From: a virus
Taxonomy: Duplodnaviria > Caudoviricetes
Strand: one strand, 5' to 3'
DNA: 64,000 nt
Virus record (IMG/VR): IMGVR_UViG_3300027708_000016
Shown: positions 15,370 to 61,771 of the stretch, piece after piece
How positions within the stretch are numbered: position 1 is the stretch's first letter
Layout of the letters: each line of letters starts with the position of its first letter
Program-made: the position numbers and the translations under genes
Notes under the pieces: generated by a model
What the model saw: the letters and a program-made list of their open reading frames with translations, nothing else
Told to the model about the DNA's origin: nothing
The model's database searches: none

Positions 15370-16146
15370 CTACTGTAACCCAATATAAAGACTTGTACCA
15401 GCATCTTGCACAGCATAACTATCGTAAACAAATTCAACATTACTAGTTCTTAACCCTTCTTCCATGTAGGAATACTCCTCACCTGGCATGTTAACTGGAG
15501 CAACATTATAAAATCTATAAATTTTTCTAATCCCCATCGGTGCAGCAATATTTGAATAACTATTAGAGGGTGCTGCTGCATAAAAATCATTCATTCTTCC
15601 TGTTTTTGCCAACATTACAACATCTACAAAGTTTGATTTTACATAAAGAGGTGAGTTTGTTGGTCTAGCAACTAATCCGTTATAACCAACTGAAATAATC
15701 CAAGGTCTTAAAACTAAATCTAAAAAAGATGCATTAGTTTCAAGCATGGTTACACCCAATTTTTTATAATTTTCTCTATTTGAAGCAGTTGCAGGAGCTT
15801 GAAACCCACCATAATCTAACCCCTTATTACCAGCATCTATGGTTTCACCTGGCAAGCTCACCTGTCTTGCAAATGCACAACCCATTATATTATTTCCAGC
15901 ATATTGTAAGCTACCATCCAACAAATATTGAGTAACATTACTATTTAAATTCCACTGGTCGATAGTTTCTCTGTCTCTTAATATTCCCTGTAAATTACCC
16001 ATTAAGGAATTTACGGAAGTAAAATCAAAATATATCAACCACTGACTAGCAAGAGCTAGACCAGTGGGCCATTTACCCAGTAAATTTAGGTAATAAGAAT
16101 ACGCACTAATACCCCCAAAGGGAGGAAGCATGAAATTATTTGGCAT
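15370..16146 (-). CDS. Tail tube initiator / tube-fold protein (gp54-like)
   Basis: ARQVSLPGE, TMLETN, LRPW, YRFYNVAPV tube-fold motifs. Confidence 0.65.
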   Translation of the reverse strand: MPNNFMLPPFGGISAYSYYLNLLGKWPTGLALASQWLIYFDFTSVNSLMGNLQGILRDRETIDQWNLNSNVTQYLLDGSLQYAGNNIMGCAFARQVSLPGETIDAGNKGLDYGGFQAPATASNRENYKKLGVTMLETNASFLDLVLRPWIISVGYNGLVARPTNSPLYVKSNFVDVVMLAKTGRMNDFYAAAPSNSYSNIAAPMGIRKIYRFYNVAPVNMPGEEYSYMEEGLRTSNVEFVYDSYAVQDAGTSLYIGLQ

Positions 16147-16174
16147 AATAATATTTATGCCTTAGTTCTTATTA

Positions 16175-16714
16175 TTAAGAATTTCTCCAATACTGGTATG
16201 CAATAGTTGCCTGTTGTGTGAGAACATCTCCAGCAGCTGTGATATCCAATGAGAGTTCACCAATTTGCTGTAACCATGCACCATATAATGTATATGTCTC
16301 AAGAGGATTACCTTGCTTATCGATTAAAACTAAAACAACTTGGTTTGATGCAGCAGTTGATGGAATATTATATGCACCAGTACTTGTTGAATCATCAAAA
16401 ATTGATCTTTGCCATGCTTCAAGTTTCTGACGAATTGAAATATTTTGTGGTAAACGGAATGTTACTTGCCATCCCGCACTGTTTGGATAATTCACCGTGC
16501 CTGGCACGTTAAATCTTAATCCCATGAAAGGCACTTCAACGTTCTGAATTGCCTTTGCTGGTAATGTTGTTGTTGTCACATAAAGCAACTCGTTAGTATC
16601 AAAGGTTGTTCCACCTAGTGCTACTACTCTGAATAAATTCGTTCTTGCGAAGTCATTTACTTGGGCTGTGTTATAGAAGTTTTCGATTCCGTATTGGTCT
16701 AGTATTCCACTCAT
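16175..16714 (-). CDS. gp19: Tail tube protein (T4 gp19-like)
   Basis: ARTNLFRV, EVPFMGLRFNVPG, IRQKLEAW, YTLYGAW, TIAYQYW. Confidence 0.92.
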   Translation of the reverse strand: MSGILDQYGIENFYNTAQVNDFARTNLFRVVALGGTTFDTNELLYVTTTTLPAKAIQNVEVPFMGLRFNVPGTVNYPNSAGWQVTFRLPQNISIRQKLEAWQRSIFDDSTSTGAYNIPSTAASNQVVLVLIDKQGNPLETYTLYGAWLQQIGELSLDITAAGDVLTQQATIAYQYWRNS

Positions 16715-16732
16715 ATATTAATATTTATCCTT

Positions 16733-19162
16733 TTATTGTCCAACTATTTCGTTAAAATTAACGCCTGTTTGGGTTGCGATAAAGTCACAGAGAATAAACT
16801 CTGCGGTTTTAACTGGTTGGATGTAAATCGATATCGCTAATTGATTTGAATCGATTACTGAAGGTGTATTGTTTCTTTCGTCACAAACAAGAAGGTAATC
16901 ATATAAACCATTGTTGATTTTTGCATTATCAAATATTGGTCTTAATGCTCCGACTAATCTTGTTCTTGTACTGAATGTATTTGGCTCAAACACAAAGTAC
17001 TTTAATAAAGCCTGTGTTTGTTTTTCCAAGGTTAAGAAAAGTCTACGAACATTAAGGCGATCAAAAGCTGATGGTGTGCGATAGAGAGTCTTCTGTCCGT
17101 ATACCACATAACCTTCATTTGGGAAATATGCAATCGGATTGATATTACCTTTGTAAAGCAAATCTCTCTGTTTCTGTGTTGGGTTTATTGCAACATCAGT
17201 AACATTTGATAATGTACCTCTGCTGAATCCAGCAACTGCACTCCAAGGGAATGATGTTTGAGATGATGAAGCAATTAATCCTGCTACATATCCAGATGGA
17301 GGAAGCCATACTGGTGAATTTGAGAACGTATCATTATATTTGAGCCAGTTGCCATAAGTTACAACATAACTGCTGATATTAGGTGAATACAAGTTGTTAA
17401 GGGGCCAGTATATGTGATCAGAGAACACATAATCAGGTAATGCCGAAGTCTTTTGGTTAGCACCAACTACAAATATATGTCTCAGAGGATCTGCGATGAA
17501 TACGTGATCTTTTCTCGTGTCATTTGCGAGAGATATAAACTGATTTGCAATTGCTTGATAATAAAATCCAGCACCTTGCCCAGTACTACCCGAAGCATTC
17601 GATGTATTATAAAGATTTGCTTTATTGTTGCGATCACTATTAAGATAATTGTATGTATCATCATATGTGATAGGGAGAGTACTATTTGCATTAGATGCAC
17701 TTAATGAGGCGCAACTTGCCCAGATTGTTCCTAAACCTGCTTCAGCAGTTATATCCAAGTTAATTTCATCACTGTTTTGTAATGAATTTAATACATTTTG
17801 TAACTTAAGAGGAATATTACCAACTTTAGCAGCTGATGTATCGGTATCTGATACATAAACACCAAGAGGATATAAACTTTGGGCAGCAGCACCAACGGTA
17901 ACAGTTTTGAGAGGAGTATATACTCCATCAAGTGTAGTGTTACTCCAGTTTCCAACCTTTGAAATATATGGATTTATTAAAACCTGAATATTTCTTGATG
18001 CATTATCAACAACTGTTTCTAACGAGAATGACTTAGCAGCCCCACCATTTGGATTTGGAATTGTTCTATTTGCATAAAGCGAACCAGTATAAGCTTCAGC
18101 AACCTTATAATTTAAAGATATAGTATCTTTATTATAATTTGATGTAGTTATTTTGAAAAGACCAATGACCAAACTGTCATTGTAAGATTTTGAAGCAAAC
18201 GAGAATCCCGTTGGATATTGCTCAATAACCTGTGAAAGACTTGTACCTCCAAAATTTGCATATGCTGCGGTTAATTGGAAATTAAGTCTACTTTGCGGAA
18301 CAGTTGCATATGATTGAACTATACCCGTGTTTGATACTGCCGTTTGAATTGATGTAACCGAAGTAAAGTTTGTTGATGGGTTTACATTCTGGTTACTGAT
18401 AACACCAACATAATATCCTTGGAAAAGACTATCGATACTTCTCTTTGAAGTATTTAAAATAATTAATCCAGCATTAGCTAATGCAGATACGGAATCTGTT
18501 GTAGTTGGAGTAATTGAAGATGTTACATATGATCCACTACTGGAATAATACCATGTTACTGCTGATAAAGTTGGTGAAATTGCACTTACACTCGTAACGT
18601 CTGAAGAAACTGCACTAGCACCCGTGTAAAACGCTGCAAGTGTTGCATAAGTTGCTCCACTACCAATCTGCGTGGAAGATAAAGCATATGGTGTTGTTGA
18701 CCATGTTATATTACCAGATTGTAATTGATTAAATTGATTATTTGTTAAAAGAACAGATGTTGGTGCACCTAAAACATATGCTGATGCATTTTGAAATTGT
18801 GTATTTGATGTTCCAGTAGTATTAGTATCTAATGTTACTGGATAAACTAATGCACTATATGTATTGGAAAAACCCTGACCTGCTTGATCACCATAAGGTA
18901 ATCTGTTTACCAAAAGATTGCCTGGTGAAGTATTTAAAATCTGTCTTGCTGTGTGATAAAGATATCGTTCTGCTGCATTTGTAGGAACGCCAAACGTATC
19001 TTCAAATTCAGAAATACTTGAAATTCTTACAAATTCTTCTGTTGGTCCGTAGTTTGTGAATCCAGTTATAAGGATATCCGTTGCTCCGATTGGTCTTGAT
19101 ATTACGCTAAGATCAGTTTCGCTGATTTGCACACCTGGTGATGTTAAAGTTAAAGTAGACAT
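16733..19162 (-). CDS. gp18: Contractile tail sheath protein (T4 gp18-like)
   Basis: SPGVQISETDLS N-terminus; INPIAYFPNEGYVVYGQKTL, FDRLNVRRLF, FEPNTFSTR; ATG 19162. Confidence 0.96.
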   Translation of the reverse strand: MSTLTLTSPGVQISETDLSVISRPIGATDILITGFTNYGPTEEFVRISSISEFEDTFGVPTNAAERYLYHTARQILNTSPGNLLVNRLPYGDQAGQGFSNTYSALVYPVTLDTNTTGTSNTQFQNASAYVLGAPTSVLLTNNQFNQLQSGNITWSTTPYALSSTQIGSGATYATLAAFYTGASAVSSDVTSVSAISPTLSAVTWYYSSSGSYVTSSITPTTTDSVSALANAGLIILNTSKRSIDSLFQGYYVGVISNQNVNPSTNFTSVTSIQTAVSNTGIVQSYATVPQSRLNFQLTAAYANFGGTSLSQVIEQYPTGFSFASKSYNDSLVIGLFKITTSNYNKDTISLNYKVAEAYTGSLYANRTIPNPNGGAAKSFSLETVVDNASRNIQVLINPYISKVGNWSNTTLDGVYTPLKTVTVGAAAQSLYPLGVYVSDTDTSAAKVGNIPLKLQNVLNSLQNSDEINLDITAEAGLGTIWASCASLSASNANSTLPITYDDTYNYLNSDRNNKANLYNTSNASGSTGQGAGFYYQAIANQFISLANDTRKDHVFIADPLRHIFVVGANQKTSALPDYVFSDHIYWPLNNLYSPNISSYVVTYGNWLKYNDTFSNSPVWLPPSGYVAGLIASSSQTSFPWSAVAGFSRGTLSNVTDVAINPTQKQRDLLYKGNINPIAYFPNEGYVVYGQKTLYRTPSAFDRLNVRRLFLTLEKQTQALLKYFVFEPNTFSTRTRLVGALRPIFDNAKINNGLYDYLLVCDERNNTPSVIDSNQLAISIYIQPVKTAEFILCDFIATQTGVNFNEIVGQ

Positions 19163-19244
19163 ATTTCTAAATGTATTTACCCTACGAAATACCACTTTTT
19201 ACAAAATCTTTTTTTATTTGATTACGATGGTAAGTATTTGCACG

Positions 19245-19514
19245 ATGAGTAAATTTGATTTAGCTGTAGCTTCAATATTAGAAGAAGCAAATTGCACAAA
19301 AACAACACAAAAAACGCATTCAACAAGAAAAGGCAAAAAGTGGATGAAGTGTGTTAAGAATCCAAAAGGTGGATACAAAAGAATCCATTGGGGTCAAGCT
19401 GGTGTAAGAGTTGGAAAGAATAATCCAAAAAGAAGAAAATCATTTCGTGCTAGACACAAGTGTTCAAGTGCAAAGCCAGGCACACCAAAGTATCAAGCTT
19501 GTAAAGATTGGTAA
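19245..19514 (+). CDS. Small basic Cys-containing protein (RRKSFRARHKC type)
   Basis: ATG 19245 after TAAGTA; motif familiar from T4-like phage head-associated small proteins. Confidence 0.65.
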   Translation: MSKFDLAVASILEEANCTKTTQKTHSTRKGKKWMKCVKNPKGGYKRIHWGQAGVRVGKNNPKRRKSFRARHKCSSAKPGTPKYQACKDW

Positions 19515-19533
19515 GTAATAGTATAATAATATT

Positions 19534-19977
19534 ATGAGCAAACAATTTGACAAAATAATAAACAAATTTTTAACCGAAAGTGGAGTTGAAGATGCAATTA
19601 AAAATAATCCACCATTAGATAATGCGCTTAAAACAATTTATAAAAGCAACCCACAAGTTGCTAAAATAACTGGCGCACTTGGTGAAAAGCAAGCCGAAAT
19701 AGCAAACGAAACAGATCCTTCTAAACAAAACGATCCAGCTACTTTGGTTCAACAATTAGCAAGCACAGATCCTGCACACAGCGATATTTCCCATGTAAAT
19801 AATATATTACATCATCAAGGTGTTCCCGAATATTTAACCAAAATTGGTTTACAACCAATACAACCCCAAGAACAAAAAACAAACAGCGAAAAGGCAAAGG
19901 CTGGAGAGCAGCCAAATACCAATCCAAGCGCAAACGACACTAATCAAGCTGCTACCTATAATAAAGCAGTACAATAA
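19534..19977 (+). CDS. Hypothetical protein, putative internal head protein
   Basis: N-terminal FDKIINKFLTE leader; TAAGTA upstream. Confidence 0.55.
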   Translation: MSKQFDKIINKFLTESGVEDAIKNNPPLDNALKTIYKSNPQVAKITGALGEKQAEIANETDPSKQNDPATLVQQLASTDPAHSDISHVNNILHHQGVPEYLTKIGLQPIQPQEQKTNSEKAKAGEQPNTNPSANDTNQAATYNKAVQ

Positions 19978-20000
19978 TATCATTTAGATATTAAATTTTT

Positions 20001-24380: not shown

Positions 24381-25205
24381 TTATACATTGTCTAAAAGAT
24401 GCTTTGCTTCTTTTTCAAGATCAATAATATTTATCAATTCATAATCCTCTTTACCAGCAACCCAAACAATATTACATTCACCAACTTCAAATGGTGAGTT
24501 TCTTTCAATGATTAATTTGTATAATAAAAGTTGAATACTGTACTTTGAAAGTTCACAATTTGGGATATGATCAAACGGTTTCAATAACATTTCATCTTTA
24601 TAACCTTTGGTTTTTATTTCTTTATTTGTCTTATAATCAAATAATACAAGCTTACCTGTTTTCTTATTAAACGAAAGATTATCAATCGTTCCACAAACTT
24701 TCTTTTCTTTATCACCTATCACAAATTCAGATTTTAAAAGAATATGATCTTGTTTCCACCATTCGTAAAAGTTTCTAAAGTTTTTAATTAACAATGCCAT
24801 TTCGGTATAATAGTTTTCTAAATTATTATTTCCTCCACTTTTATTTATGAGTTCAATCGCTGCTTGTTTATCAATTGGTATAGTTCTTCTCTCATAAAAA
24901 TTCTCAACCATTAAATGAAATTCGCTACCTTTATGACATGAATAATCACCATTATATTTCCATTCATCCAATATAGCTTCAACGGGTTTGCCATCTCGTC
25001 TGGCAATATGAGAAGCAATTTTTTCTTTTTCAAAAGGCTTTTCATATTTTTTAATAAGCTGTGAAACAGACTTCTTTGCTCGTACTCCGTCTATTTCATA
25101 ATAATGACCTTTTTCAAAAAACTTAATATCTGAAAATGCATCTAACAGTGTTATTAAACTATTAAAATTAGGTTTTTCCAAATCCAATGATTCTTTCTTT
25201 GTCAT
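24381..25205 (-). CDS. PD-(D/E)xK exonuclease (Cas4/RecB-like)
   Basis: KGSEFH, CGTIDNL, LFDYKT, YSIQLLLY. Confidence 0.85.
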   Translation of the reverse strand: MTKKESLDLEKPNFNSLITLLDAFSDIKFFEKGHYYEIDGVRAKKSVSQLIKKYEKPFEKEKIASHIARRDGKPVEAILDEWKYNGDYSCHKGSEFHLMVENFYERRTIPIDKQAAIELINKSGGNNNLENYYTEMALLIKNFRNFYEWWKQDHILLKSEFVIGDKEKKVCGTIDNLSFNKKTGKLVLFDYKTNKEIKTKGYKDEMLLKPFDHIPNCELSKYSIQLLLYKLIIERNSPFEVGECNIVWVAGKEDYELINIIDLEKEAKHLLDNV

Positions 25206-26382
25206 CTTTTATTTTTTCCTCGTTTAAATCTACATCCTTTTCCAAATTATAAATGTCTGCAACAGACATTGCTTTTGTAATTTTATCAATGGTTTTTTTA
25301 CTATACTTCAAAGTTTTTGCTAATTTCTTTGCATCAGTTATAGGTAGCGCACCAAATTCATAATCAACTTGTAATCTACCCTTTCTTCTGAGAGCAGAAT
25401 CAATTTCGTTCTTTGGACAGTTATAAGTCAATATAACGGAAGTCTTTAGAATATCACTCATAATTCCATCAGACAAATTAAGAAGCGAAGAAACAGCAGA
25501 TGAATCCATACCATCACCATGTCTTTTCATAATTGCTTTTTCTGCGTCTTCCAAAATAATAATTGAATTTGGTTTTTGAATAAGCATACTTAAACAATTC
25601 GGATCAGATGTAAAAGTCTCAACCATTGTTGTTGGGATATAGATAAAATCTCTATTAACTTGCCCAGCAAGATATTTAATATATGTAGTTTTTCCAGTTC
25701 CTGGCAAACCATGAAACATAAATAATCCACTTTTATTATTAGTTAGTCTATCCTTAATGGTTTTATCAATATCTAAAAATTTAGATCCATAATTTAATTC
25801 TAAATCAATATTTTCTGGTACACTAACTGAAATTGGTTCAAATGCAAAATCACCATACTGATTTTTAATAAAAAGATGAACCTTTGATCCTTCTTCTTTA
25901 ACTATAAAATTTTCAAAGTCTTCAAAATGATAATCTTGCACCTGTGCAGGTGCTGCAATCATTAAATCAAACTTTTTTAATAAGATTTTTTTATCATTTC
26001 TAGCTTTTTCATCTTCATCAAACTTAAATGGCAATCCACCAACATCCATTGTTACATTATCGTCATCTTGACCACTTGCAGATAGTTTAATATAAATATC
26101 TTTATATTTAAACCAAAAAGTACCACCTCTAAAATGTTTGTAATTTTCTTTCATCTGAGTTAATTTCCCAGTTGAACTGAATTTAATTAATTTTGAATTA
26201 TTTAAAAGATATTCAAAAATGTCTTCATTAAATTTTTCATCAATGAAAAAAAATGATACAGATGAGTTATAAGTCAATGAAATATAACGAGTTATATTAA
26301 ATTCACTTCCTGATGAATGAGCATAAAGATCGTTATTTTTATCTGTATGTTTAAAAATCTTTGATTCTTTTAACTTGAACAT
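25168..26382 (-). CDS. AAA+ ATPase (BCS1-like)
   Basis: HGLPGTGKT, ILEDAE, LLNLSDG, IDSALRRKGRL. Confidence 0.9.
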   Translation of the reverse strand: MFKLKESKIFKHTDKNNDLYAHSSGSEFNITRYISLTYNSSVSFFFIDEKFNEDIFEYLLNNSKLIKFSSTGKLTQMKENYKHFRGGTFWFKYKDIYIKLSASGQDDDNVTMDVGGLPFKFDEDEKARNDKKILLKKFDLMIAAPAQVQDYHFEDFENFIVKEEGSKVHLFIKNQYGDFAFEPISVSVPENIDLELNYGSKFLDIDKTIKDRLTNNKSGLFMFHGLPGTGKTTYIKYLAGQVNRDFIYIPTTMVETFTSDPNCLSMLIQKPNSIIILEDAEKAIMKRHGDGMDSSAVSSLLNLSDGIMSDILKTSVILTYNCPKNEIDSALRRKGRLQVDYEFGALPITDAKKLAKTLKYSKKTIDKITKAMSVADIYNLEKDVDLNEEKIKDDKERIIGFGKT

Positions 26383-31271: not shown

Positions 31272-31673
31272 ATGACTTGGGAACAATACGCTCTTAAACT
31301 TGCAGAAGTTGCTGCACACAAATCTAAAGATCCTTGGCAAACCGTAGGATGTTGTCTTCTAAGGCATGATAATAGTGTTGCATCGTTAGGTTATAATGGT
31401 TTCCCTGCTGGAATGCAAGAAGATTGGAATGATAGAGATGAACGCAGAAAGTATGTTGTTCATTCAGAGATTAATGCATTAAGATACGTAAAGCCCAATG
31501 AGTGCTATTTAGCGGCAACAACTTTATTACCTTGTAATGATTGTTTAAAATCTCTTGCTGCTTATGGTATCAAAAAAATTGTCTATAAAGACCTTTATAA
31601 ATTTGACCCATCAACTCTTGAACTTGCTAAAAAATTCGGAATTGAATTAATCAATATCGTGACGGTAGACTAA
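31272..31673 (+). CDS. dCMP deaminase
   Basis: SKDPW, GYNGFP, VVHSEINAL, PCNDC. Confidence 0.92.
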   Translation: MTWEQYALKLAEVAAHKSKDPWQTVGCCLLRHDNSVASLGYNGFPAGMQEDWNDRDERRKYVVHSEINALRYVKPNECYLAATTLLPCNDCLKSLAAYGIKKIVYKDLYKFDPSTLELAKKFGIELINIVTVD

Positions 31674-34566: not shown

Positions 34567-34874
34567 AAATCATTTTTATTCTTTTTTGCGTCCTTATAAT
34601 CTTTCTTTATATCATTTATAGTTTCTTGTTTAAGAACATTGAATTTTTTCTTAAATTCTTCATAATTCGTTAGATCATTGAATCTAAATTCAGGTCTATT
34701 TTTTGGTTTTTTTTCTGGATGGAAAAAATTGGTGTATATTGCTAGGACTGCAACAATCACAACTGCTGCAATAATTGTTTTAAAAGCACCAGTAATGATT
34801 TTTTCAACTATCCATATTGAACCAAGTATTAAAATTATAGTTAATAGAATTTCTAAAGGATTATTAAAGTTCAT
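34563..34874 (-). CDS. Membrane protein
   Basis: Two N-terminal hydrophobic helices. Confidence 0.55.
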   Translation of the reverse strand: MNFNNPLEILLTIILILGSIWIVEKIITGAFKTIIAAVVIVAVLAIYTNFFHPEKKPKNRPEFRFNDLTNYEEFKKKFNVLKQETINDIKKDYKDAKKNKNDL

Positions 34875-35427
34875 GAATCCTATTATATATTATATTAACA
34901 GCTTTGTCAACTGTCATTTCACCATGATAAGGACTTTTGGGTGTTATCCAGATTTCTGGATTTATTGGTGCTTCATAAGGAGAATCAATACCAGTAAAAT
35001 CTTTAATCTCTCCTGCACGAGCTTTCTTATACAAACCTTTAGGATCTCTTTCCTCGCAGACTTCTAATGGTGTGTCCATATGAACCTCAATAAATCTTGC
35101 ATCACAATATTTCTGCAATATTTCTCTTGCATTATCTCTCATGCATTTAAGTGGAGAAATCATTGCAACAATAACAAGATTAGTATTTTGGAAAGTAAGC
35201 ATGTTTTTTGTCATATAAATAGCTTCCGATACCATTCTTTGTCTACTTGTCATATCAAACCCAATAGGCTTATCACGATTTGCTCTTATTGCATCACCAT
35301 CAACTAATCCTGTTCTGAATTGAAATATACACTTCTCATACAAAGCAGTAGCAACAGTAGTCTTTCCAGCACCTGATAAACCTGTCAGCCATACAACAGT
35401 TGGTTTCATTTTAGTATTTTTTTCCAT
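34864..35427 (-). CDS. cysC: Adenylyl-sulfate (APS) kinase
   Basis: WLTGLSGAGKTT, DGDAIR, MISP, EERDPKGLYKKARAGEIKDFTGIDSPYEAP. Confidence 0.95.
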   Translation of the reverse strand: MEKNTKMKPTVVWLTGLSGAGKTTVATALYEKCIFQFRTGLVDGDAIRANRDKPIGFDMTSRQRMVSEAIYMTKNMLTFQNTNLVIVAMISPLKCMRDNAREILQKYCDARFIEVHMDTPLEVCEERDPKGLYKKARAGEIKDFTGIDSPYEAPINPEIWITPKSPYHGEMTVDKAVNIIYNRIHEL

Positions 35428-36825: not shown

Positions 36826-37783
36826 GTTTTGCTAATTTTAAATCTGCTTCTGTCATAATTTTGACAAGCTCTTTAAATTTGACTTTTGGCTCCCACCCAA
36901 TCTGTCTTTTGAGTTTTGATGGATCACCGATAAGAAGATCAACTTCCGCTGGTCTCTCGTATCTTTGATCATACTTTACATATTCCTTCCAATCAAGATC
37001 AAGCAAGCCAAAACATTCTTCACAGAATTCTTTAATTGTATGTGTCTCATTGGTAGCGCAGACATAATCATCTGGATTATCTTGTTGAAGCATGAGCCAC
37101 ATCACCTCTGCATATTCTTTTGCATACCCCCAATCTCTTTTTGCATCTAAATTACCAAGATAAAGATCTTTCTGTAATCCCATTTTAATTCTGGTTGCAG
37201 CACGGGTAATTTTTCTAGTAACAAAAGTTTCACCACGACGAGGCGATTCGTGATTAAAAAGAATACCATTGGAAGCATGGATACCATATGACTCTCTATA
37301 ATTAACGGTCAACCAATATGCAAACACCTTTGCGCAGCCATATGGAGAACGAGGGTGAAATGGTGTGGTTTCAATCTGTGGCACTTCATGAACCTTACCA
37401 AACATTTCAGAAGATGATGCTTGGTAATAACGAATACCCTTTGAGTTTGTTTCTTTAATGGCTTCAAGTAATCTTATTGTACTAAGACCAGTTACATCAC
37501 CAGTATATTCTGGAATATCAAAAGATACTCTCACATGACTCTGTGCTCCAAGATTATAAACCTCATCAGGTTGCAGATCATATAACAATCTTGTCAATTG
37601 AGATGAATCTGATAGATCACCATAATGTAAATGTAATTTATCATATATATTTTCAATTCTCTGGGTATTAAAATTAGATGATCGACGGATTACACCATGA
37701 ACCTCATAACCTTTATCAACCAAAAGTTCCGCCAGATATGATCCATCTTGACCCGTGATACCTGTAATTAATGCTTTAGGCAT
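36809..37783 (-). CDS. gmd: GDP-mannose 4,6-dehydratase
   Basis: [54 protein letters not shown]. Confidence 0.97.
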
Positions 37784-38892
37784 AGTATATAGTTGTTAAG
37801 TTGATCAATCAGTAGTTTGTGAATTTTTAATTGTTCTTCAAGCTTTGTAACTTTTAAAGCTAAATCAGATGCTGCTTCTTCCCAAGACTTTTCTTTAGGA
37901 ATTTTATGACCTGTAATCTTACATTCTTCAAATTCTTGGAATTGATTATATTGTTTTGTTTTCTCATGACAATCACCACAAGCACATTTAAGAAAAGCAG
38001 TCTCATCTTCCTTATCACATTGTTCATCTAAAGATTTGTCTAAGTCTACTTCAACACCCTCTACTAAATCATTAGCCTTTTGAAGTAAATTTCCAATTAT
38101 ATCAGCACTACCAACAACAGGTATCTTATCATATTCTTCTTTTGTAATAGATTTTAATCTCTTTAACTCTTCTTCAAAAAAATTAACCTGATTATCCTTC
38201 TCAAAGACATAATCAACAATATCTTTTTTTAGCTTCTCTACTTCTTTCTCCAGTTCAAGTCTCTTTTCTAACTCTCTATCAGCACTTTTAGCTTCTTGTT
38301 CATAAGCTTTTTTCATACTCTCAAATGACTCTTTATACTCATTCCTTTCCTTATTAGCTGCATTCAGTTGATGTTTATACTCGTCTCTTTCTTTAGCACA
38401 CTTTGTATAATTGTTCTGCACGATTTGTAATTTTGCTTCCATATACTTTAGACCACCCATTGTAAGAAAACCATTATACTTCTCAAGAAGTTCGGTTTTT
38501 TCTTTTTCAAGCTTTTGATTAAGTTCACCAACTGGTTCACAAGCATAACATGAACCCTGATATCCATCTCTGTATTTTGCAAGTATTTCAATAAGATCAG
38601 CATTCTCCTTTTTGAGATCTATAAGAATCTTCTTAAGTTCTACATTTTCTTCTCTGAGTTTAAAAATCTTTTCATTACAAAGTTCTGGTTGGTGAACATC
38701 CCTTTTAAGCTCTTGGATTTCTTTTTTAAGATCATGGTTTTCTTTAAGAAACTGTTCAATTAATTCATTTTGTGCTTGTAACATACTAGGAGTTTGAGTT
38801 GGAGTCCAAACGTCTGGAAACCAAGCTGGAGTTAAATTAGAATCTTCTATGATCTTATCAAGAGATTTCTTTTTTGGGAATAAATTAAACAT
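37768..38892 (-). CDS. Coiled-coil hypothetical protein with CxxC motifs
   Basis: Heptad-rich; CYAC and CACGDC. Confidence 0.6.
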
Positions 38893-41176: not shown

Positions 41177-41767
41177 TTAAATCCAAACAAACAATACTCT
41201 ACGAATAACTTCTATTGGGTATTTAAAGTTTGTTCTATGTTTAAAAACAAACCATCCTAGTAATACAAAACAAAGCAACAAGACAGCTATAATAGTGTTA
41301 GGTTCAGGTAAGGGACAAATCTGATTACCAAAAGCTTGTCCAGTTCCTAGGAAATTAGTACCACTATAGAATACTATATTTTTTAAGTTACTACTATTTG
41401 GGACAGTAGTAAATTTTAAAACCTCTGATGTATTATTAGGATTATAGTTAATAATAGATAGAATATAATTATTAATGTTTATAAGACTATAAAAAGTAAG
41501 GAGAGTATTACCAGAGATTGTAGTAAAATCAATTGTACTATTAGCTGTTAGAGTAAGGGTTCCAAATGTTTGACTAATAGTTTTATCAGCAGTCCTATTA
41601 CCTCCATTGGACAATAATAAGGTTCCCCCATTTAGGACAACAGCAGTTCCTACAGTCTGTGGATTATTACCCTTTCCAACATTAAAAGTATCTTCAGAAT
41701 TAACAAGAATTACAGTACCAAAAGTATTACTAACAAAGAGTAGAAATATAGCAAGGAATCTAATCAT
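41177..41767 (-). CDS. PEP-CTERM sorting-domain surface protein
   Basis: Signal peptide; LNGGTL / GTLTLTANSTIDF beta-repeat; C-terminal LPEPN + TM helix + KHR. Confidence 0.75.
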   Translation of the reverse strand: MIRFLAIFLLFVSNTFGTVILVNSEDTFNVGKGNNPQTVGTAVVLNGGTLLLSNGGNRTADKTISQTFGTLTLTANSTIDFTTISGNTLLTFYSLININNYILSIINYNPNNTSEVLKFTTVPNSSNLKNIVFYSGTNFLGTGQAFGNQICPLPEPNTIIAVLLLCFVLLGWFVFKHRTNFKYPIEVIRRVLFVWI

Positions 41768-48387: not shown

Positions 48388-49023
48388 TTAAGCAATATTT
48401 CTGTTAATCCAAATATCTACTTTGGTAAGTTTACTTCCAATTTTTGAAATAATTCTACCTAGTCTAAACCAGAATTTATTCCAATAACCCCAAGTATATT
48501 TTCTCAAAAATCTTCTAGCTTTATTGTTAAACTTTGCTTCTTCTTCGGCTAGTTTTTTCTTCCAGTATTCATCATTTTTCTTTATTTCTTCTGCGGTTTG
48601 CGACAGACGAATCTCAACTTTCCTAAGTTTTCCTTGAATGACACCATTTACAAACTTTCCACAAAATTCTGCCCAGTACTCATTCCCTTGTTTATCAAAG
48701 AAAGAATCATAAAAATAAAGATCACCAGTAAACTTTTCAAATTTGTATTTTCTAGATTTCTCCTTGAATTCGTAGGGCCAACAGAAACGACCCTGTCTTT
48801 TGATTTTTTTCTCATCTTTTTCAGATATTACACGAACATTTTTACCTTCAACAAATAGACCGTAAAGTTTACCGTTTTTTCTAATAACATAAGTTGACAT
48901 AGTACAATCAGTATCTTTTGTTTGAAAGCTAATATCATTCCAATTCATATTGGAAAACTTTTCTTGCTCTTTCTTGTTTAGAGGAAGAGGCAACTCACAT
49001 TTAATATTATCGAACATTCCCAT
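48388..49023 (-). CDS. Conserved hypothetical phage protein
   Basis: MGMFDNIKC...FQTKD...FTGDLYFY. Confidence 0.65.
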   Translation of the reverse strand: MGMFDNIKCELPLPLNKKEQEKFSNMNWNDISFQTKDTDCTMSTYVIRKNGKLYGLFVEGKNVRVISEKDEKKIKRQGRFCWPYEFKEKSRKYKFEKFTGDLYFYDSFFDKQGNEYWAEFCGKFVNGVIQGKLRKVEIRLSQTAEEIKKNDEYWKKKLAEEEAKFNNKARRFLRKYTWGYWNKFWFRLGRIISKIGSKLTKVDIWINRNIA

Positions 49024-49150: not shown

Positions 49151-49601
49151 TGGTGGAGGCGAGGGAGAACTGCCCTCCCTGTCCTTAATATTGGTAACTA
49201 TATATTCGATACAAGCTTTGACAAAATTCGTACTTTCGTTGTCTAAAGGTAACTAGGCTTTGCCAACCTATCTATGTTTAGAGACCTACCTGTATGCGTG
49301 ATTAACGACCACATACCACCGCTTGCACTCTTTTACTAGTGTCACAAGACCCACTAAAACCTATTGTTATTCCACTACCCCTAATAGGATCAGGATTGTG
49401 GTGTTTATGCTGCCATGAGGCAAAGCTCATCTTCGTTTCCGAAGAGAGACTCTGCTGCATTTGTCACGAATGACTTGACTGCTTCAACTGCATTGGTTAT
49501 TGCCTTTGCGTTTATTTTTTAATCCGTTTTAAAGTAGCCACAGATCAACTACTGCTTGCATATATAGTTTTCAACGATTAAGTCGAATCTATTACGCCCC
49601 C
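49151..49601 (-). ncRNA. ssrA: tmRNA, 451 nt, tag AKAITNAVEAVKSFVTNAAESLFGNEDELCLMAA*
   Basis: 5' GGGGGCGTAATAGATTCGAC; 3' CGCCTCCACCA; G3:U70; AATAAAC-GCA resume context; tag ORF 49405..49509 ending AA-stop. Confidence 0.93.
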
Positions 49602-51550: not shown

Positions 51551-52195
51551 TTAAATTATTCTTTTATCATCATCCAAAGGAATTGGTTCATGCCAAATCC
51601 TATTATCTTCAACTTGATATCCTCTTTCCTTTAAATCTTTGATTGTTTTATCTTTATTATCATCCCAATTAAGAAAAAACAAATCTTTTAGTTTATCTTC
51701 AAACCAATTAATTCTTGGTTTGTTTTTATTGAAATGAACAATATGAGTTGGTGTATAATTCCATGACCATTTAATTTCATACCATTGAAACATTACAAAT
51801 CTTTTAAATCTTTCCCAAGGAGTAGAACTTTTATTTTTAATAAAATAAAGACCATCTTCTGTATATTTTTTATATGTTTTAAAATCAAATGGACGATAAC
51901 TACTATATTTTATATTGTTTAAAACAATCCAAACAGATTTAACTCTATTTTTCCAAGTGTATTCCATACTTGGATTAAGGCGGCAATCTTGTTCAATCGT
52001 ATTTCTAAATACTTTAGAAACATCAGCAACAGTTCTGGTCTCGTTATGCTTTGCAAGATATTCGTTTACATCCACATTATCTTCTTTACAGATTTCAGCG
52101 AGGTAATCTTTCACAGTTGGAATTACCATAGTTTCACCTTGTTTACCAGTTTCAACTGGCAAACTTTTAAATGCACTTGATGTAGAATTGCTCAT
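51551..52195 (-). CDS. Hypothetical protein
   Basis: 214-aa ORF. Confidence 0.6.
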   Translation of the reverse strand: MSNSTSSAFKSLPVETGKQGETMVIPTVKDYLAEICKEDNVDVNEYLAKHNETRTVADVSKVFRNTIEQDCRLNPSMEYTWKNRVKSVWIVLNNIKYSSYRPFDFKTYKKYTEDGLYFIKNKSSTPWERFKRFVMFQWYEIKWSWNYTPTHIVHFNKNKPRINWFEDKLKDLFFLNWDDNKDKTIKDLKERGYQVEDNRIWHEPIPLDDDKRII

Positions 52196-53426: not shown

Positions 53427-53471
53427 AAAAAAATATTTTATTTTATGTATTATTTTCGAGTAAATATTATT

Positions 53472-53987
53472 ATGAAAAAATGTTTAACTTGTCAAAAAAC
53501 TCTCATAGGAAAATATAAAAAGAAATTCTGTAACGCTTCATGTGCTGCAAAGACAAATAATAAAATACCTAAAAGAAAAAAAGAAGGTGATTTAAAATTT
53601 TGTTTAAATTGTAATAAAGAATTTTATATAAGTCCTAGCAAAGGTAAAGGAAAATATTGTAGCATTAATTGTATGCATGAACATTATAATAAAGAATTTG
53701 ATAATGAAATAGAAAATCTTTTTAATTTAGGTAAACTAAAATATAGAGATAAAATAAAAAGAATTCTTTTAAAAAAAAACGGACATAAATGTTTATCGTG
53801 TGGATTAACTGAATGGAATAATCAACCAATACCTTTATGGGTTGATCATATTGATGGATGTGCAAATAATAATAATCCAGAAAATCTAAGACTTGTTTGT
53901 TTAAATTGTGATGCTCTATCTAAAACTTTTGGTGGTAAAAATAGAGGCAACGGAAGAAGATCTTTAGGACTTAGACCTTGGGATTAA
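53472..53987 (+). CDS. HNH homing endonuclease with zinc-ribbon repeats
   Basis: CLTC/FCNASC, CLSCG, LWVDHIDG..NN..ENLRLVCLNC. Confidence 0.9.
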   Translation: MKKCLTCQKTLIGKYKKKFCNASCAAKTNNKIPKRKKEGDLKFCLNCNKEFYISPSKGKGKYCSINCMHEHYNKEFDNEIENLFNLGKLKYRDKIKRILLKKNGHKCLSCGLTEWNNQPIPLWVDHIDGCANNNNPENLRLVCLNCDALSKTFGGKNRGNGRRSLGLRPWD

Positions 53988-53992
53988 AAAAG

Positions 53993-54066
53993 CTCCACTG
54001 GCTAGAGTCGAACTAGCATGATGAACAAATTAACAGTTTGCTGGCTTACCATTAGCCCACAGTGGA
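53993..54066 (-). tRNA. tRNA-Asn(GTT)
   Basis: TCCACTG...CAGTGGAG; GCAAA-CTGTTAA-TTTGT. Confidence 0.92.
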
Positions 54067-54073: not shown

Positions 54074-54148
54074 TGGTCGAGCACCCCAGTTACGCTCCGG
54101 GTATATCAAAGTCCCAAACTTTGCGGATTACTATCTTCCTCGTGCTCG
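54074..54148 (-). tRNA. tRNA-Pro(TGG), non-canonical T-loop
   Basis: CAAAG-TTTGGGA-CTTTG; T-loop AGCGTAA; CCA. Confidence 0.85.
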
Positions 54149-54163: not shown

Positions 54164-54430
54164 TCAACCGCCAGCTATTGCTGGAACTATTGAAATTACA
54201 TCCTCATCTTTAATCTCCTGTGTATCTAAAAATCTCATATCCTCATCGTTTACAAAAATATTAATGAATCTACGAACCTCATTATTTTCGTCGTAGATTC
54301 TTTCCTTTAGATCTGGATATGACAAGCAAAGAAGTACCAAACATTCATCAAGAGTTTTTCCGAAACTTTTGATCTCTTCACTTCCACCTACTAATTTTCT
54401 CAAAGGTGTTGGGATTCGTATAATTGCCAT
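54164..54430 (-). CDS. Ubiquitin-like MoaD/ThiS/CysO-family protein
   Basis: IPTPLRKL.GG, RRFINIFVNDED, C-terminal IVPAIAGG. Confidence 0.92.
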   Translation of the reverse strand: MAIIRIPTPLRKLVGGSEEIKSFGKTLDECLVLLCLSYPDLKERIYDENNEVRRFINIFVNDEDMRFLDTQEIKDEDVISIVPAIAGG

Positions 54431-54481: not shown

Positions 54482-54565
54482 CGGGTGACTGAGGTATCGA
54501 TCCCCATGCCTTTCAGCACCGCTAGTTTTCAAGACTAGGTTTAACGCCAGTTAAATTAATCACCC
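54482..54565 (-). tRNA. tRNA-Ser(TGA)
   Basis: CTAGT-CTTGAAA-ACTAG, long variable arm, G73. Confidence 0.88.
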
Positions 54566-54572: not shown

Positions 54573-54650
54573 TGGAGCGTCAGACAGGATTTGCACCTGT
54601 GGCTTTAGAGTTTTGCAGACTCTTCCTTTGGGCTTCTCAGGCACTGACGC
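54573..54650 (-). tRNA. tRNA-Cys(GCA)
   Basis: AGAGT-CTGCAAA-ACTCT, U73, CCA. Confidence 0.9.
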
Positions 54651-54659: not shown

Positions 54660-54748
54660 TGGAAGGAGCGGTGGGATTCAAACCCACGGAACCTTTTGGG
54701 TTCTTCCGATTAGTAATCGGATACTTTAAATCACTCAGTCACGCTCCC
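54660..54748 (-). tRNA. tRNA-Ser(ACT)
   Basis: TCCGA-TTACTAA-TCGGA, long variable arm GAACC/GGTTC, CCA. Confidence 0.85.
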
Positions 54749-54793: not shown

Positions 54794-55003
54794 ACGTGGT
54801 ATTCAGAGATTTTATTGCGCAATTCGTTCTCTTATCAACTGATCCCCAACGTGGAACGTTAAGTTTCGGTCTAGCTAGATATTTTTCAAATCAGATGTGT
54901 CAACACTCTCGTAGCTTCGTTCTACATCCTAGATAAAACTTCTAATCACCAATCTAGCAACTCGGTTTTACCTTATTCTGGTAATGTGCTACCTACCAGA
55001 CGT
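54794..55003 (-). ncRNA. Candidate ~210-nt structured RNA of unknown family
   Basis: ORF-free; promoter-like TTTACA-16-TAAGAT upstream, U-rich tail; several hairpins and pairing ends. Confidence 0.45.
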
Positions 55004-55041
55004 ATTAATATCTTATCGAAAATATTATCAATGTAAAGAAA

Positions 55042-57890: not shown

Positions 57891-59597
57891 TTATTTTCTC
57901 TTTGCTGCTTCTGCACTTAACATTGATGATGTTTCCTGCATTTCTTTCATGAATTTTTGTGCAAAATTTGCCTTCTCGGTTGCATCATAATTTCCAGTTT
58001 GTAGATATTTAAATACCGTCATTAACGTATCTTTATCCAATCTGTTTTTCAATTGAATAAAAATATCTTGTGACCATTCAGGATGTAAATTGTTAAACAC
58101 CTTTGCAATATTTTCAAGGATGTATTGCTCATTTGGTGTAAGAGGACTATTAGGATTTTTATGTAATAATTTTGAAACGTATGCAAACTTACCAGCCAAG
58201 AATTCCGCAATCTTAAACATATCAGCTTGATATTTATCTTCAATTTTTCCACCCGTATCAAGATGACCAACTAATGATTTCATGTCATATGCTCGTAAAA
58301 GCTTTATGAAATTAACAAACTCATCTGCCCATGCTGAACCCAATAACCCAGCAGCCTTATCCCAAATATATCTATAAGGAGGAACTGGTAAAGTTTTACC
58401 TTCCTTTTTAGCCTTTGCGTATATTCGATATGCGTGTTTTAATTGATCTGAAAATTTCTCAATCTGTCTTGGTACTGGTAATGGATCGCCAGTTCGCGAA
58501 GATTTAATTTCACGATCTTCCGTAGGTATAAATATATTTGCCTTCCCTTCTCTACCTTCCTTACTTGGAGCAACCACTTCGTGTTTTATAAATGCTATAA
58601 TTCTTGGATCTACACCTTCATGCACAGCAAAATCACACCATGCTTCGGGATCAGCAACTAAAACACCAGACTCAAATCTTGTTACCAAGGCTAATGGTAT
58701 TGGCTCGTTTCCAAAAGCAGATGCCAAATTAGCAGCAGCCAAAATTGCCCACCCTTCACTGAATTTACCTTTTCCACCTGAACGATCTAAAACTACTTTA
58801 AATAAAGCTTTTAATGTTTGTTTATCACCTTGATTTAATTCGTCCAAAAAGAGAATACCATCCGAGCCTGGTCTTGTCATTAACCAAATCCATAAATCTT
58901 GATTGTAACTAACAGGTGCTTCAACGTCTTCGTTTTCACCTACTACTTGTTCAAGAGTTTTAAAGGGAATACCCTTGATATCAGAAGGTTCAAGTTCATT
59001 TGCTCTTACATCAACTAAAGCAAAATAATTTTGAGGATTTCTTAAACAATCCATGATTTCCTCTGGTTCTGCCTTTAAGAAATTAATATATTTTCTTTGC
59101 TTTCCCGTTCTTTGTTTTGTTTTTGGATCAATCGATTCACTTCCACCAACAAAAGAAGTCGATGCAAGATCTTTTGCAATACTTGCAACCATTGTACTTT
59201 TACCGATACCAGAACCACCGTAAATTAAAAGAGGTTGTTTTGTTACATAAGAATTTCTTATATACATGTCTATAGTTTTATAACTATATTGTGGTAATTC
59301 TGTATCTGCATAACTTTTTACCATCTCTTCGCCAGCCGTACCGTCACCTAAATCAAGATTATCTAAATCTGCTTCCAAGTCAGGTTCTTCAACTGGTAAA
59401 ACTAAATTCTCATGATCTTCTGCTGAAGCTGTTGATTTGGTTGGTGGTTTTGATAATTTTGCAACAGATCCTTTGATTTTATCAAACCCACCAACTTCTG
59501 ATGAATTATCCTTGAATTTTGCAGCGGACTCATCGGCTTCATTAAGATAAACAGCACCATAAGCTTCCATCAGTTTAAATAAATCTCTATTGTTCAT
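57891..59597 (-). CDS. MoxR-type AAA+ ATPase
   Basis: YGGSGIGKS, GILFLDELNQ, ILAAAN, ALVTRF, PVPRQ. Confidence 0.88.
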   Translation of the reverse strand: MNNRDLFKLMEAYGAVYLNEADESAAKFKDNSSEVGGFDKIKGSVAKLSKPPTKSTASAEDHENLVLPVEEPDLEADLDNLDLGDGTAGEEMVKSYADTELPQYSYKTIDMYIRNSYVTKQPLLIYGGSGIGKSTMVASIAKDLASTSFVGGSESIDPKTKQRTGKQRKYINFLKAEPEEIMDCLRNPQNYFALVDVRANELEPSDIKGIPFKTLEQVVGENEDVEAPVSYNQDLWIWLMTRPGSDGILFLDELNQGDKQTLKALFKVVLDRSGGKGKFSEGWAILAAANLASAFGNEPIPLALVTRFESGVLVADPEAWCDFAVHEGVDPRIIAFIKHEVVAPSKEGREGKANIFIPTEDREIKSSRTGDPLPVPRQIEKFSDQLKHAYRIYAKAKKEGKTLPVPPYRYIWDKAAGLLGSAWADEFVNFIKLLRAYDMKSLVGHLDTGGKIEDKYQADMFKIAEFLAGKFAYVSKLLHKNPNSPLTPNEQYILENIAKVFNNLHPEWSQDIFIQLKNRLDKDTLMTVFKYLQTGNYDATEKANFAQKFMKEMQETSSMLSAEAAKRK

Positions 59598-59631
59598 GTT
59601 TTAATTATAAATTACTTATCTCTATACAAGG

Positions 59632-60576
59632 TTAATATGTGTATTTTATATCAACTTTATAAATGAAATTTGTGTATCTTCCCTTTAAATATTCGTCTGT
59701 TGAGTTTCCATGTAGTAATACTACAGTTTGACCTTTAATTTTTGGTTTTATTAAAGTTCCCATTCCTTCTTCAATTCGTCCATCAGTAAAAATTAAAAGG
59801 TTGTCAACATTTACTTTTTCCAATTGTTTTATATCTTGATTTACCCACATAGAAACAGGGTTAATTCTCGTACCACCTTCAGCAATTGTAACGTTTTCAA
59901 GCTCTTCTTTAATTTGCTCAAAAGATTTTTCTGGTATTTTTAAATGAGTAAATTTATAAACTTTTTCAGTAAAATAAATTATGTATATATCAAGATGTTT
60001 AAATTTTTTAATTATTGTTAAAATCTGATTTCTTATTGTTCTTAAAACTGGTTCTCTCATACTACCAGAAGTATCGATTGCAATTACACCAGTAAATTTA
60101 TTTTCTTCTTTAGATTTGCCAGGTAAAAAGACACCAACCGCACCACTTTTTTTATGTCTTTTTGTAAAGTCATATCTTGTGTTAGCAGAATTTGTTAAAA
60201 ATCTTTGTAAAATAGTTTCCCAATTCATACCAGCTTGCTGCCAATTAAGATCTTTATCTAAAGCTTGTTCTTCGCCGTGTCCCGATCCACCTTCACCTTT
60301 TGCTTGTTCTGCGGTTTCTTTTCTATTTTTTCTAACTTTATTTTTTTGTTCTTCGGTTTTTGGGTTGGTTCTATATACAGGATTTTTTGTGTATTTTGAA
60401 ACGTCAATTATATCATGTTGATGATTACTATTATCGTAAATATGAGTATCACCTTGAACGTGTGATCTTTCAATTTTGGGTTTAGTTCCTTCAAATTTAG
60501 CAGTACCTTGACCAGTTCCTTCGCTAACTGGTTTTAGTTTTCTTACTTTATCTCTGTTTAAAATAATATCACTCAT
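59632..60576 (-). CDS. vWA domain protein (DUF2201 C-terminal-like)
   Basis: [48 protein letters not shown]. Confidence 0.88.
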
Positions 60577-61771
60577 ATTTTTTTCTATCGTTTTTTGATA
60601 ATGGTTTAATTTTATAATGACCATCTGGGGTAATTTCAGTTACTTCTCCAAAATTACCTCTGTCATCTTCGATTACATCACCTACACTAATATCATTGCC
60701 TTGGTCTTTTGTACCCGTACCAGTTGATGAACTAGTACCCGTACCAGTTGATGTTCCTCTTCCAGTTTGCGTAGATGTACCAGTACCTGTTTGGGTTCCT
60801 GTACCAGTTCCTGTTTGAGTTCCTGTACCTGTCTGAGTACCAGTTCCTGTTTGAGTTCCTGTACCTGTCTGAGTACCAGTTCCTGTCTGAGTACCAGTAC
60901 CTGACTGAGTACCAGTTCCTGTTTGGGTTCCTGTACCAGTTCCTGTTTGAGTTCCTGTACTTGTTTGAGTTCCTGTACCTGTTTGAGTTCCTGTACCTGT
61001 CTGAGTACCAGTTCCTGTTTGGGTTCCTGTACCAGTTCCTGTTTGAGTTCCTGTACCTGTTTGAGTTCCTGTACCTGTCTGAGTACCAGTTCCTGTTTGA
61101 GTTCCTGTACCTGTCTGAGTACCAGTTCCTGTTTGGGTTCCTGTACCAGTTCCTGTACCCTTACTTTTATTTTTTTCTAAAATGTCATATATTTGTTCTG
61201 CTTTTAAATCAGTAATATCAACATTATTAAGTTCCCATCTCGGAGGTGTCATCCAATCTTTTCCGTTAGCTATCCATCTTCCGTTTTTAAGAACAGGAAG
61301 TAAAGCCATACGATTTAATTTCAACCCAAAAATTTCCAAATATTTGTTAATAACATAATCAGTAGAAACATTCCAGAGAAGATTGTCTCTACCAAGTTGT
61401 CTATCAAAAGATGATAATAAATAATGATGAACCTCGTGAGCTAAAGTTGCGGTAAACTCATCTTCTGTTATTTCATAAGCAGCAAATTTTGGATTTATGT
61501 AAAGATTTTCATAACCATCAACTGCCATTGTATCAACAGACCAATCAAGATTAATAGCTAATTTTTTAAGGTGAATTCCTATTGTTTTAAAAAATCTCGA
61601 CAAAAACATTTTAGAATTTAAAAGTCTTTTATCAATTATTTCAAAAGCTTCTCTTTCGTTAAATTCATCTCCTCCTTTAGAGGTGGGTGTGGGTTCAGGT
61701 GCTGGCGAATTTTCGTTATATATTGAAATATAACGCTCCATAATAGATTGAAGATCTTTACTATATGCCAT
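60569..61771 (-). CDS. Putative metallopeptidase (DUF2201 N-terminal-like) with Thr/Gly/Gln repeat and SH3-like tail
   Basis: [30 protein letters not shown]; TGTQTG repeats; [10 protein letters not shown]... Confidence 0.82.
60711..61160 (-). repeat. Coding tandem repeat, 18-bp unit (TGTQTG), about 450 bp
   Basis: gtaccagttcctgtttga-type units with synonymous variants and occasional extra TG dipeptides. Confidence 0.95.

Follow-up and report, generated by a model that had tools for sequence, protein, structure and literature searches.

The 64,000-nucleotide stretch of DNA analysed here (IMG/VR record IMGVR_UViG_3300027708_000016, called the window throughout, at its full length) belongs to a large, uncultured, AT-rich T4-like myophage of freshwater metagenomes, with about 32% guanine plus cytosine (GC). 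Among its tRNA genes the window carries an intact open reading frame (ORF) of 88 amino acids (aa) for a ubiquitin-like sulfur carrier that, by sequence and predicted fold, is of the CysO/MetO type. The enzymes with which such carriers work were found neither in the window nor in 14 viral records of relatives. We tentatively favour the reading that this is an orphan sulfur-carrier auxiliary gene, which would be charged by an E1 activating enzyme of the host and would sustain methionine and cysteine synthesis during infection; we hold this to be possible, if somewhat short of probable. The gene is the following:

54164..54430, minus strand: sulfur-carrier ORF, 88 aa, ThiS/MoaD family, CysO/MetO type, with a C-terminal Gly-Gly

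Sequence and Predicted Structure of the Carrier

The initial annotation, made from the sequence alone, had described an intact beta-grasp protein with a GG end, and the ORF, the Pfam score, and the predicted fold agree with that description. The protein ends in VPAIAGG, which is followed directly by a TGA stop codon, and the reading frame is uninterrupted. The Pfam ThiS profile (PF02597) matched residues 4-88 with 45.1 bits against a cut-off of 22.5 (E 1.5e-11), and the AlphaFold2 model adopted a beta-grasp fold with a predicted local distance difference test score of 92.2. The curated profile score, the beta-grasp fold, and the C-terminal Gly-Gly together place the protein in the ThiS/MoaD superfamily.

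When the model was compared with known structures by Foldseek, CysO, SAMP1, Urm1, and MoaD were all recovered with a probability of 1.00. The two solved CysO proteins gave template modelling (TM) scores of 0.86-0.88, the best being that of Mycobacterium tuberculosis with 0.88; SAMP1 and Urm1 were the next-best fold matches, and TtuB was a remote one (E 0.56, TM 0.45). The best sequence matches in the PDB were also to CysO, from M. tuberculosis (E 1.4e-13, about 38% identity) and from Amycolatopsis orientalis (E about 1e-13). The latter, second-best among the solved matches, is structure 4n6e, in which CysO is bound to the 2-thiosugar synthase BexX.

None of the NCBIfam equivalogs for moaD, thiS, SAMP1, and Urm1-like proteins reached its own cut-off with the window carrier (TIGR01682 moaD, 14.1 against 66.15; TIGR01683 thiS, 13.4 against 37.45; Urm1_like, 34.9 against 70), and the Urm1 profile of Pfam scored 18.1 against 21.8. 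The protein does not qualify as MoaD or ThiS proper, given these scores and the lack of MoaE and ThiG in the 14 viral records. It was also possible to see that 32 of the 36 positions with at least 90% conservation among cellular carriers are retained. The assignment to the CysO/MetO type is based on the nearest relatives in sequence and structure; linkage to CysM or MetM and an E1 in the same genome, which go with that type, were not found in the ORFs of the window or in the 14 viral records.

Cellular Relatives and Partner Genes

Cellular homologues were sought in one genome per species from 185,579 species. The best copies were 49-60% identical to the window carrier and none exceeded 60%. 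The gene neighbourhoods of the 80 nearest cellular loci were then counted. A ThrC-like enzyme dependent on pyridoxal phosphate (PLP), of the MetM type, was present in 68 of them, mostly ending about 50 nucleotides (nt) or less upstream of the carrier; CysK/M accompanied the carrier in 49, a MoeB/MoeZ-like E1 in 46, and a NIL protein also in 46. By their gene content, these neighbourhoods correspond to the MetM/MetO/Mec/MoeZ route to homocysteine together with the CysO/CysM route. The former is a thiocarboxylate route from Streptomyces albulus (Hasebe et al. 2024), for which we rely on its citation in bioRxiv 10.1101/2024.10.14.618325. In those Verrucomicrobiota genomes whose carriers are nearest, the MoeZ-like E1 (about 400 aa) is encoded away from the carrier, so the use of a distant E1 is normal in this family. 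The C-terminus was exactly GG in 35 of 82 cellular carriers, while the rest bear a tail that needs trimming.

According to the initial annotation no E1/MoeB, JAB, or synthase accompanies the carrier in the window, and the profile search of window ORFs of at least 90 aa confirmed it, with no E1/ThiF, JAB, PALP, or PP-loop thiolase detected. The suggestion that such genes be looked for elsewhere was followed in the 14 viral records of relatives, among which one is 91% and another 88% complete. No ThiF, PALP, Prok-JAB, rhodanese, MoaE, ThiG, cysteine desulfurase, or TtuA/NcsA-type enzyme was found in these records. Several candidates were rejected: the PP-loop (ATP_bind_3) hits that might have been thiolases proved to be QueC, the weak ThiG hits were IMPDH/GMP-reductase-like proteins, and a PALP hit in record G010 had only 11 bits and belonged to another family. 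The carrier probably runs on enzymes of the host.

As a separate observation, the QueC gene adjoins a RecA-like gene in two carrier-bearing records, G003 (L147, 907-2755) and G012 (L146, 907-2755), which suggests 7-deazaguanine chemistry in this phage group.

Occurrence and Selection in Phages

The carrier is found in a phage clade at 55-98% identity, with copies at 70-98% coming from phage-like contigs such as L003 (161 kb) and, at the upper limit of length, L001 (204 kb); IMG/VR contained 14 records with copies at 39-83% identity. In the phylogenetic tree the window and nine viral rows formed one clade (support 94/91), which grouped only weakly with Verrucomicrobiota carriers (81/55). The nearest cellular relatives of a second viral clade (L026 type) were Chloroflexota-type carriers, and therefore more than one acquisition is possible. 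A Chthoniobacterales/Verrucomicrobiota host was considered and rejected on account of the weak tree affinity and a disagreement in GC content. Positions 1-20000 of the window had no DNA match in 401 Verrucomicrobiota genomes.

Within the first viral clade the synonymous sites were saturated (dS >1), dN was 0.05-0.4, and dN/dS was about 0.03-0.2 for the closer pairs. As read from these substitution rates, the carrier has long been kept under purifying selection in phages. All 16 distinct viral carriers end exactly in GG. The idea that the gene could be a recent capture of a host MoaD is contradicted by these saturated, purifying substitution patterns and by the 60% ceiling on identity to any cellular copy.

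Between the window and G007 (L159) the terminase is 85% identical, whereas the carrier, compared with that of L020, is 56% identical at the same array position; from these identities, the allele would have been either exchanged or evolving much faster than the core genes. Another carrier, P0063 (88 aa, on metagenome contigs of up to 31.5 kb), is a mosaic in which residues 1-50 are similar to the L020-type allele (72%, against 38% to the window) and residues 51-88 to the window-type allele (89-95%). Its sequence points to intragenic recombination between phage alleles.

Seventeen terminase relatives in IMG/VR (47-86% identity) showed no carrier, and as all of them are fragments this is not readable as absence; the largest, G024, is 77% complete, and its contig breaks off within the tRNA array. 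Cultured relatives of the phage are distant, with terminase identity of at most 37%, and a tblastn search of 50,697 phage records with the window carrier and the divergent viral carriers L025 and L028 gave no match.

The tRNA Genes around the Carrier

On the minus strand the order of genes is Ser(ACU), Cys, Ser(UGA), carrier, Pro, and Asn, and the carrier ORF is separated from its neighbours by 52 nt upstream and 15 nt downstream. The elements of this run are the following:

54660..54748, minus strand: tRNA-Ser, anticodon ACU, called by ARAGORN and Rfam; heads the Ser-Cys-Ser-carrier-Pro-Asn run
54573..54650, minus strand: tRNA-Cys(GCA), called by ARAGORN and Rfam
54483..54565, minus strand: tRNA-Ser(UGA)-like gene of class II, with anticodon loop CUUGAAA, a long variable arm, and a cloverleaf
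54464-54459 (TTGATT), N16, 54442-54437 (TAAGAT), minus strand: sigma70-like promoter, ending 6 nt before the ATG
54074..54148, minus strand: tRNA-Pro(UGG)-like gene with encoded CCA, cloverleaf fold with z -2.9, missed by ARAGORN and Rfam
53992..54066, minus strand: tRNA-Asn(GUU), called by ARAGORN and Rfam; next gene downstream

In this region ARAGORN called only tRNA-Asn, tRNA-Cys, and tRNA-Ser(ACU), so that both direct neighbours of the ORF were missed. That the carrier lies between a tRNA-Ser and a tRNA-Pro, as the initial annotation had it, is nevertheless borne out, since both flanking elements form cloverleaf tRNAs that are conserved in relatives. The upstream one reached 43.3 bits with the tRNA-Sec model of Rfam, below the gathering score, and can be aligned with the tRNA-Ser(UGA) of L001, L003, and L020. 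The T-loop of the downstream one is AGCGUAA instead of TTCRANY; this gene is kept in L003 and L006 (about 8285-8360) with compensatory changes in the anticodon stem, and a tRNA-Pro(UGG) occupies the same position in L001 and L020. The order carrier-(Pro)-Asn recurs in L001, L003, L006, L008, L019, and L020. The tRNA-Glu(UUC) and tRNA-Gln(UUG) that had been reported for the window were both found by ARAGORN.

Two further observations were made on the tRNA calls. The tRNA-Ser with anticodon ACU (A34) was also called in L001 (7044-7133), L003 (7305-7392), L006 (7683-7771), and L020 (4581-4668), and a long tRNA-Ile(UAU) of 90-94 nt was called in L008 (3586-3679), L019 (4674-4764), L007 (5193-5282), and L012 (3469-3561).

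The co-occurrence with tRNA arrays across phages, which had been proposed as a check, was evident in 11 of the 14 viral loci, where the carrier lies within a tRNA cluster. This recurrence runs against the notion that relatives would show no such association. Counting all viral contexts, the carrier is in a tRNA region in about 12 of 16, in varying positions; it is at most 200 nt from a tRNA in 8 contexts and at most 1 kb in 3 more, and in four large relatives the portions of the genome at these distances were 3-4% and 7-14%, respectively. In the window, L001, L003, L006, and L020 the carrier has Ser/Cys on one side and Pro/Asn on the other, whereas in L008 and L019 its neighbours are Ile(UAU) and Asn. 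In G001 it is flanked by Ile(UAU) and Met, with the Ser-Cys cluster 13 kb away, and in G003 it lies about 700 nt after Pro-Asp. Within the second clade, L028 and L232 carry it in tRNA regions, and L026 and L235 (replication module) carry it outside them; the carriers of G012 and L023 are also away from tRNAs. HNH genes adjoin the carrier in the window (53445-53987), L001, L002, and L232. The link to tRNAs is real and recurrent without being obligatory, and it may be owed in part to shared ancestry and to how plastic tRNA regions are, given the HNH genes beside the carrier.

Promoter and Expression

The promoter TTGATT-16-TAAGAT named in the initial annotation is present ahead of the carrier, conserved in relatives, and a member of a recurrent class. 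It has 8 of 12 consensus matches and for this reason was not listed by a generic promoter scan. The pattern CTTGAtT-N16/17-TAAGAT/TATATA is conserved in five relatives, L006, L001, L003, and L020 included. Across the window, 8 of 68 genes (for example, 25168-26382, 31272-31673, 37768-38892, 48388-49023, and 51551-52195) are preceded by a TTG[ACT][ACT]N-N16-TAnnnT site whose end is precisely 6 nt from the ATG; among all ATG triplets, only 1.1% are preceded by a site of this kind at a distance of 4-10 nt. Shine-Dalgarno-like motifs are rare (12 of the 68 genes). Both features point to widespread leaderless mRNAs in this phage and, because Shine-Dalgarno motifs are rare in it, the carrier is likely to be made from a leaderless early mRNA. 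The loci L008 and L019 have no such promoter, and there the ATG of the carrier begins 13-14 nt after tRNA-Ile(UAU), so the mRNA would come from the tRNA transcript.

Another site lies upstream of the tRNA run:

54809..54838, minus strand: promoter-like site TTGATA-N18-TAAAAT, 10/12 matches, a consensus match only

No terminator-like site was found by the scan between this site and the carrier ORF. Regarding RNA, an identical contig of 210 nt inside the ORF (54203-54412) was present in one lake metatranscriptome. The metatranscriptome runs were available as assembled contigs, in which strand and RNA ends are unreadable and gaps cannot be taken as silence.

The same runs covered an ORF-free stretch at 54800-55019 (minus strand), upstream of tRNA-Ser(ACU), with contigs from three of four lake metatranscriptomes. 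Coverage begins close to a TTTACA-N16-TAAGAT site (55037-55010) and ends in every contig at about 54800. This stretch could be an RNA of about 200 nt or the leader of the tRNA-cluster transcript; it had no Rfam match, and the segment 54795-55025 folds no better than its shuffles (z -1.15).

Proposed Function and Alternatives

The sequence of events that we propose for an orphan carrier serving methionine and cysteine synthesis is as follows. Early after infection, the gene's own host-type promoter would give a leaderless mRNA for the carrier; in those lineages in which the gene adjoins a tRNA, processing of the tRNAs would instead release the carrier mRNA from the transcript of the cluster. 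A MoeZ-type E1 of the host would adenylate the C-terminal glycine and convert it to a thiocarboxylate, whose sulfur would be used by host PLP enzymes to form homocysteine, cysteine, or both. Because the phage carrier ends exactly in GG, no trimming by a JAMM/Mec protease would be needed. The extra carrier would in this way maintain the supply of sulfur amino acids during phage protein synthesis.

The initial annotation had included a CysO-type role in cysteine synthesis among its hypotheses. Homology, fold, the operons of cellular relatives, and the 32 retained family positions argue for it; the connection that had been drawn with cysC is weak. This gene is located as follows:

34864..35427, minus strand: APS kinase (cysC), Pfam APS_kinase 1.1e-47, placed by tblastx against the APS kinase of G001

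It lies 19 kb from the carrier and is unlinked to it, and APS kinase was present in the window and 5 of the 14 viral records and absent from the 91%-complete G003.

A number of points weigh against a supply of sulfur amino acids as the purpose of the carrier. The consuming PLP enzyme is in no phage record, and a MoeZ-type E1 and MetM/CysM in the infected cell are presumed. The GC content of the phage (32%) clashes with that of the Verrucomicrobiota carrier loci (53-60%), despite the weak affinity in the tree. The phage proteomes are ordinary in their content of cysteine (1.0-1.4%) and methionine (1.6-2.0%). The RNA evidence is a single assembled contig in a single run, for which DNA carry-over is possible. 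Finally, a supply of methionine and cysteine does not by itself explain why about 12 of the 16 viral contexts have the gene in a tRNA region.

It is the gene position alone that makes tRNA thiolation, another hypothesis of the initial annotation, a live rival. The carrier would act there as a TtuB/Urm1/SAMP2-like sulfur donor for tRNAs of the phage or the host, charged by a host E1, and a host enzyme of the TtuA/NcsA type would pass the sulfur to U34 or another position. Eight contexts lie within 200 nt of a tRNA, against a genome share of 3-4%, the array position differs between lineages, the second, divergent clade also occurs in tRNA regions (L028, L232), and carrier and tRNAs share a strand with no terminator between them. 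The weak matches to the Urm1 and Urm1-like profiles and the tRNA-Glu(UUC) and tRNA-Gln(UUG) in the array go in the same direction. Against this, sequence and fold are CysO-like and distant from TtuB, the only PP-loop enzyme in the 14 viral records was QueC and not one of the TtuA/NcsA type, and the copies of G012, L026, L235, and L023 are outside tRNA regions. Moreover, bacterial 2-thiouridine at position 34 is normally made by MnmA and a cysteine desulfurase with no ubiquitin-like carrier, and accessory genes and homing endonucleases are known to accumulate in the tRNA regions of T4-like phages. We consider thiolation unlikely, and similarly unlikely is a dual function, in which a carrier charged by the host E1 and kept within the tRNA sets of large aquatic phages would thiolate the phage's own tRNAs or mark proteins, and would be expressed from a tRNA-punctuated or leaderless mRNA; this would be the first virus-encoded Urm1/TtuB-like system in bacteria.

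The free GG in every viral copy and the lack of a phage JAB, along with the early host-type promoter and the fact that SAMP1 and Urm1, the next-best folds, serve both as carriers and as modifiers, would also suit a protein modifier or an E1 sponge. Such a protein would be conjugated as in sampylation or as TtuB is, or would saturate the host E1 and so block Bil or type II CBASS-like defence (CBASS, cyclic oligonucleotide-based antiphage signalling system) or cofactor synthesis. The whole conserved surface of the metabolic carriers is kept, and not the tail alone, which speaks against the decoy of anti-phage conjugation systems that had been hypothesized. Three viral carriers had no PADLOC v2 match at E up to 1, in a 2023 library that may lack Bil models, and our literature search turned up no phage ubiquitin-like decoy. 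An E1 that belongs to a defence system acts specifically on its own substrate. A modifier or sponge is, in our judgement, quite unlikely. Sulfur donation to other phage-directed chemistry, for a thiosugar, as CysO serves BexX, or for a thio-cofactor, is suggested by the complex in 4n6e as second-best solved match; no ThiG/BexX-like protein, MoaE, rhodanese, or cysteine desulfurase was found in the 14 viral records, and we regard this option as very unlikely. The gene might lastly be a near-neutral passenger hitch-hiking in a plastic tRNA region and moved by HNH homing endonucleases, considering that HNH genes adjoin it in four loci (window, L001, L002, L232), that P0063 is a mosaic allele, and that terminase and carrier identities diverge so much between the window and G007 (85% and 56%). 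The strong purifying selection in spite of saturated synonymous sites, the invariant GG end, the retention of 32 of 36 family-conserved residues, and the conserved promoter make a passenger highly improbable.

Other Features of the Window

Besides the genes treated above, the window contains the following genes, together with ribonucleotide reductase, PhoH, baseplate and tube genes, 14 tRNAs, and one transfer-messenger RNA (tmRNA):

7531-9417: terminase
16733-19195: tail sheath

The tmRNA (49151-49601, minus strand, 84.9 bits in Rfam) adjoins tRNA-Ala, and the array of L028 also contains a tmRNA. A cassette at 57891-61771 (minus strand) encodes an AAA_16/MoxR-like ATPase, a VWA protein, and a DUF2201 metallopeptidase-like protein, and it remains beside the tRNA region in L003 (12487-16267) and L006 (660-4540). 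At 41177-41767 (minus strand) we noted a PEP-CTERM-like secreted repeat protein, with LPEPN, a hydrophobic stretch, and KHR at the end, that NCBIfam does not recognise; this signal may hint at an exosortase-bearing host.

Significance and Comparison with Known Systems

Carriers of the ThiS/MoaD family connect primary sulfur metabolism, tRNA modification, and ubiquitin-like conjugation. A partnerless carrier, long retained by a phage lineage in its tRNA arrays, is a clean natural test of how a virus can drive an E1-dependent pathway of its host with a single protein of 88 residues. If the carrier does feed the thiocarboxylate route, whose branch to homocysteine was described only in 2024, assimilatory synthesis of sulfur amino acids would join the processes reprogrammed by freshwater phages, and there would be a further case of the tendency, already reported, of phages to encode carriers rather than enzymes. 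Should its role instead be in tRNA thiolation or in conjugation, it would represent a viral factor of a new kind, for translation or for host takeover. Although the phage is uncultured, the protein itself can be tested in laboratory strains, since it is small, looks soluble, and has a confident structural model.

Our literature search gave no description of a CysO/MetO-type phage clade embedded in tRNA arrays. Lists of auxiliary metabolic genes from viromes name moaD, mec, and moeZR among sulfur-relay genes (PMC12092443, PMC10134843), as bulk automatic annotation with no analysis. A ThiS/MoaD-related beta-grasp domain with a conserved C-terminal glycine was described in tail assembly protein I of phages lambda and T1 (Iyer, Burroughs and Aravind 2006, PMC1779556), and the window carrier had a weak match to PHROG 32 (E 0.0014). 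The tail protein is fused to a C-terminal domain and is encoded beside JAB/NlpC in tail modules, whereas the window carrier is free-standing, outside the tail module, and with no JAB.

With TtuB of Thermus, Urm1, and SAMP2 the carrier has in common the superfamily and the GG end. Activation by an E1 is a property of those proteins, and it is the phage gene that is physically tied to tRNAs. It differs from them in its poor TtuB fold match, in Urm1 profile scores under the cut-offs, and in having no TtuA/NcsA partner. The likeness to MetO of the S. albulus route is drawn through the nearest cellular relatives (50-60% identity), which in 68 of 80 loci come directly after a MetM-type enzyme; the phage has no MetM, and many cellular carriers have residues after the GG, which the phage copies never have.

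The closest known protein is CysO of M. tuberculosis (Cfp10A; PDB 3DWG/3DWM), with which the phage carrier shares the beta-grasp fold, the motifs IPTxLR, RFxNxxVNDED, and AIAGG, and a free Gly-Gly. The mycobacterial protein works with CysM, Mec+, and MoeZ, while the phage gene is alone, with none of them nearby or in the 14 viral records, and it is flanked by tRNAs and preceded by a predicted leaderless promoter. Phages have been reported to favour sulfur carriers over enzymes, as in the case of DsrC, TusE-like proteins, and SoxYZ (Kieft et al. 2021, PMC8190135). Those phages likewise encode a carrier without its enzyme, but the proteins belong to other families and serve dissimilatory sulfur oxidation.

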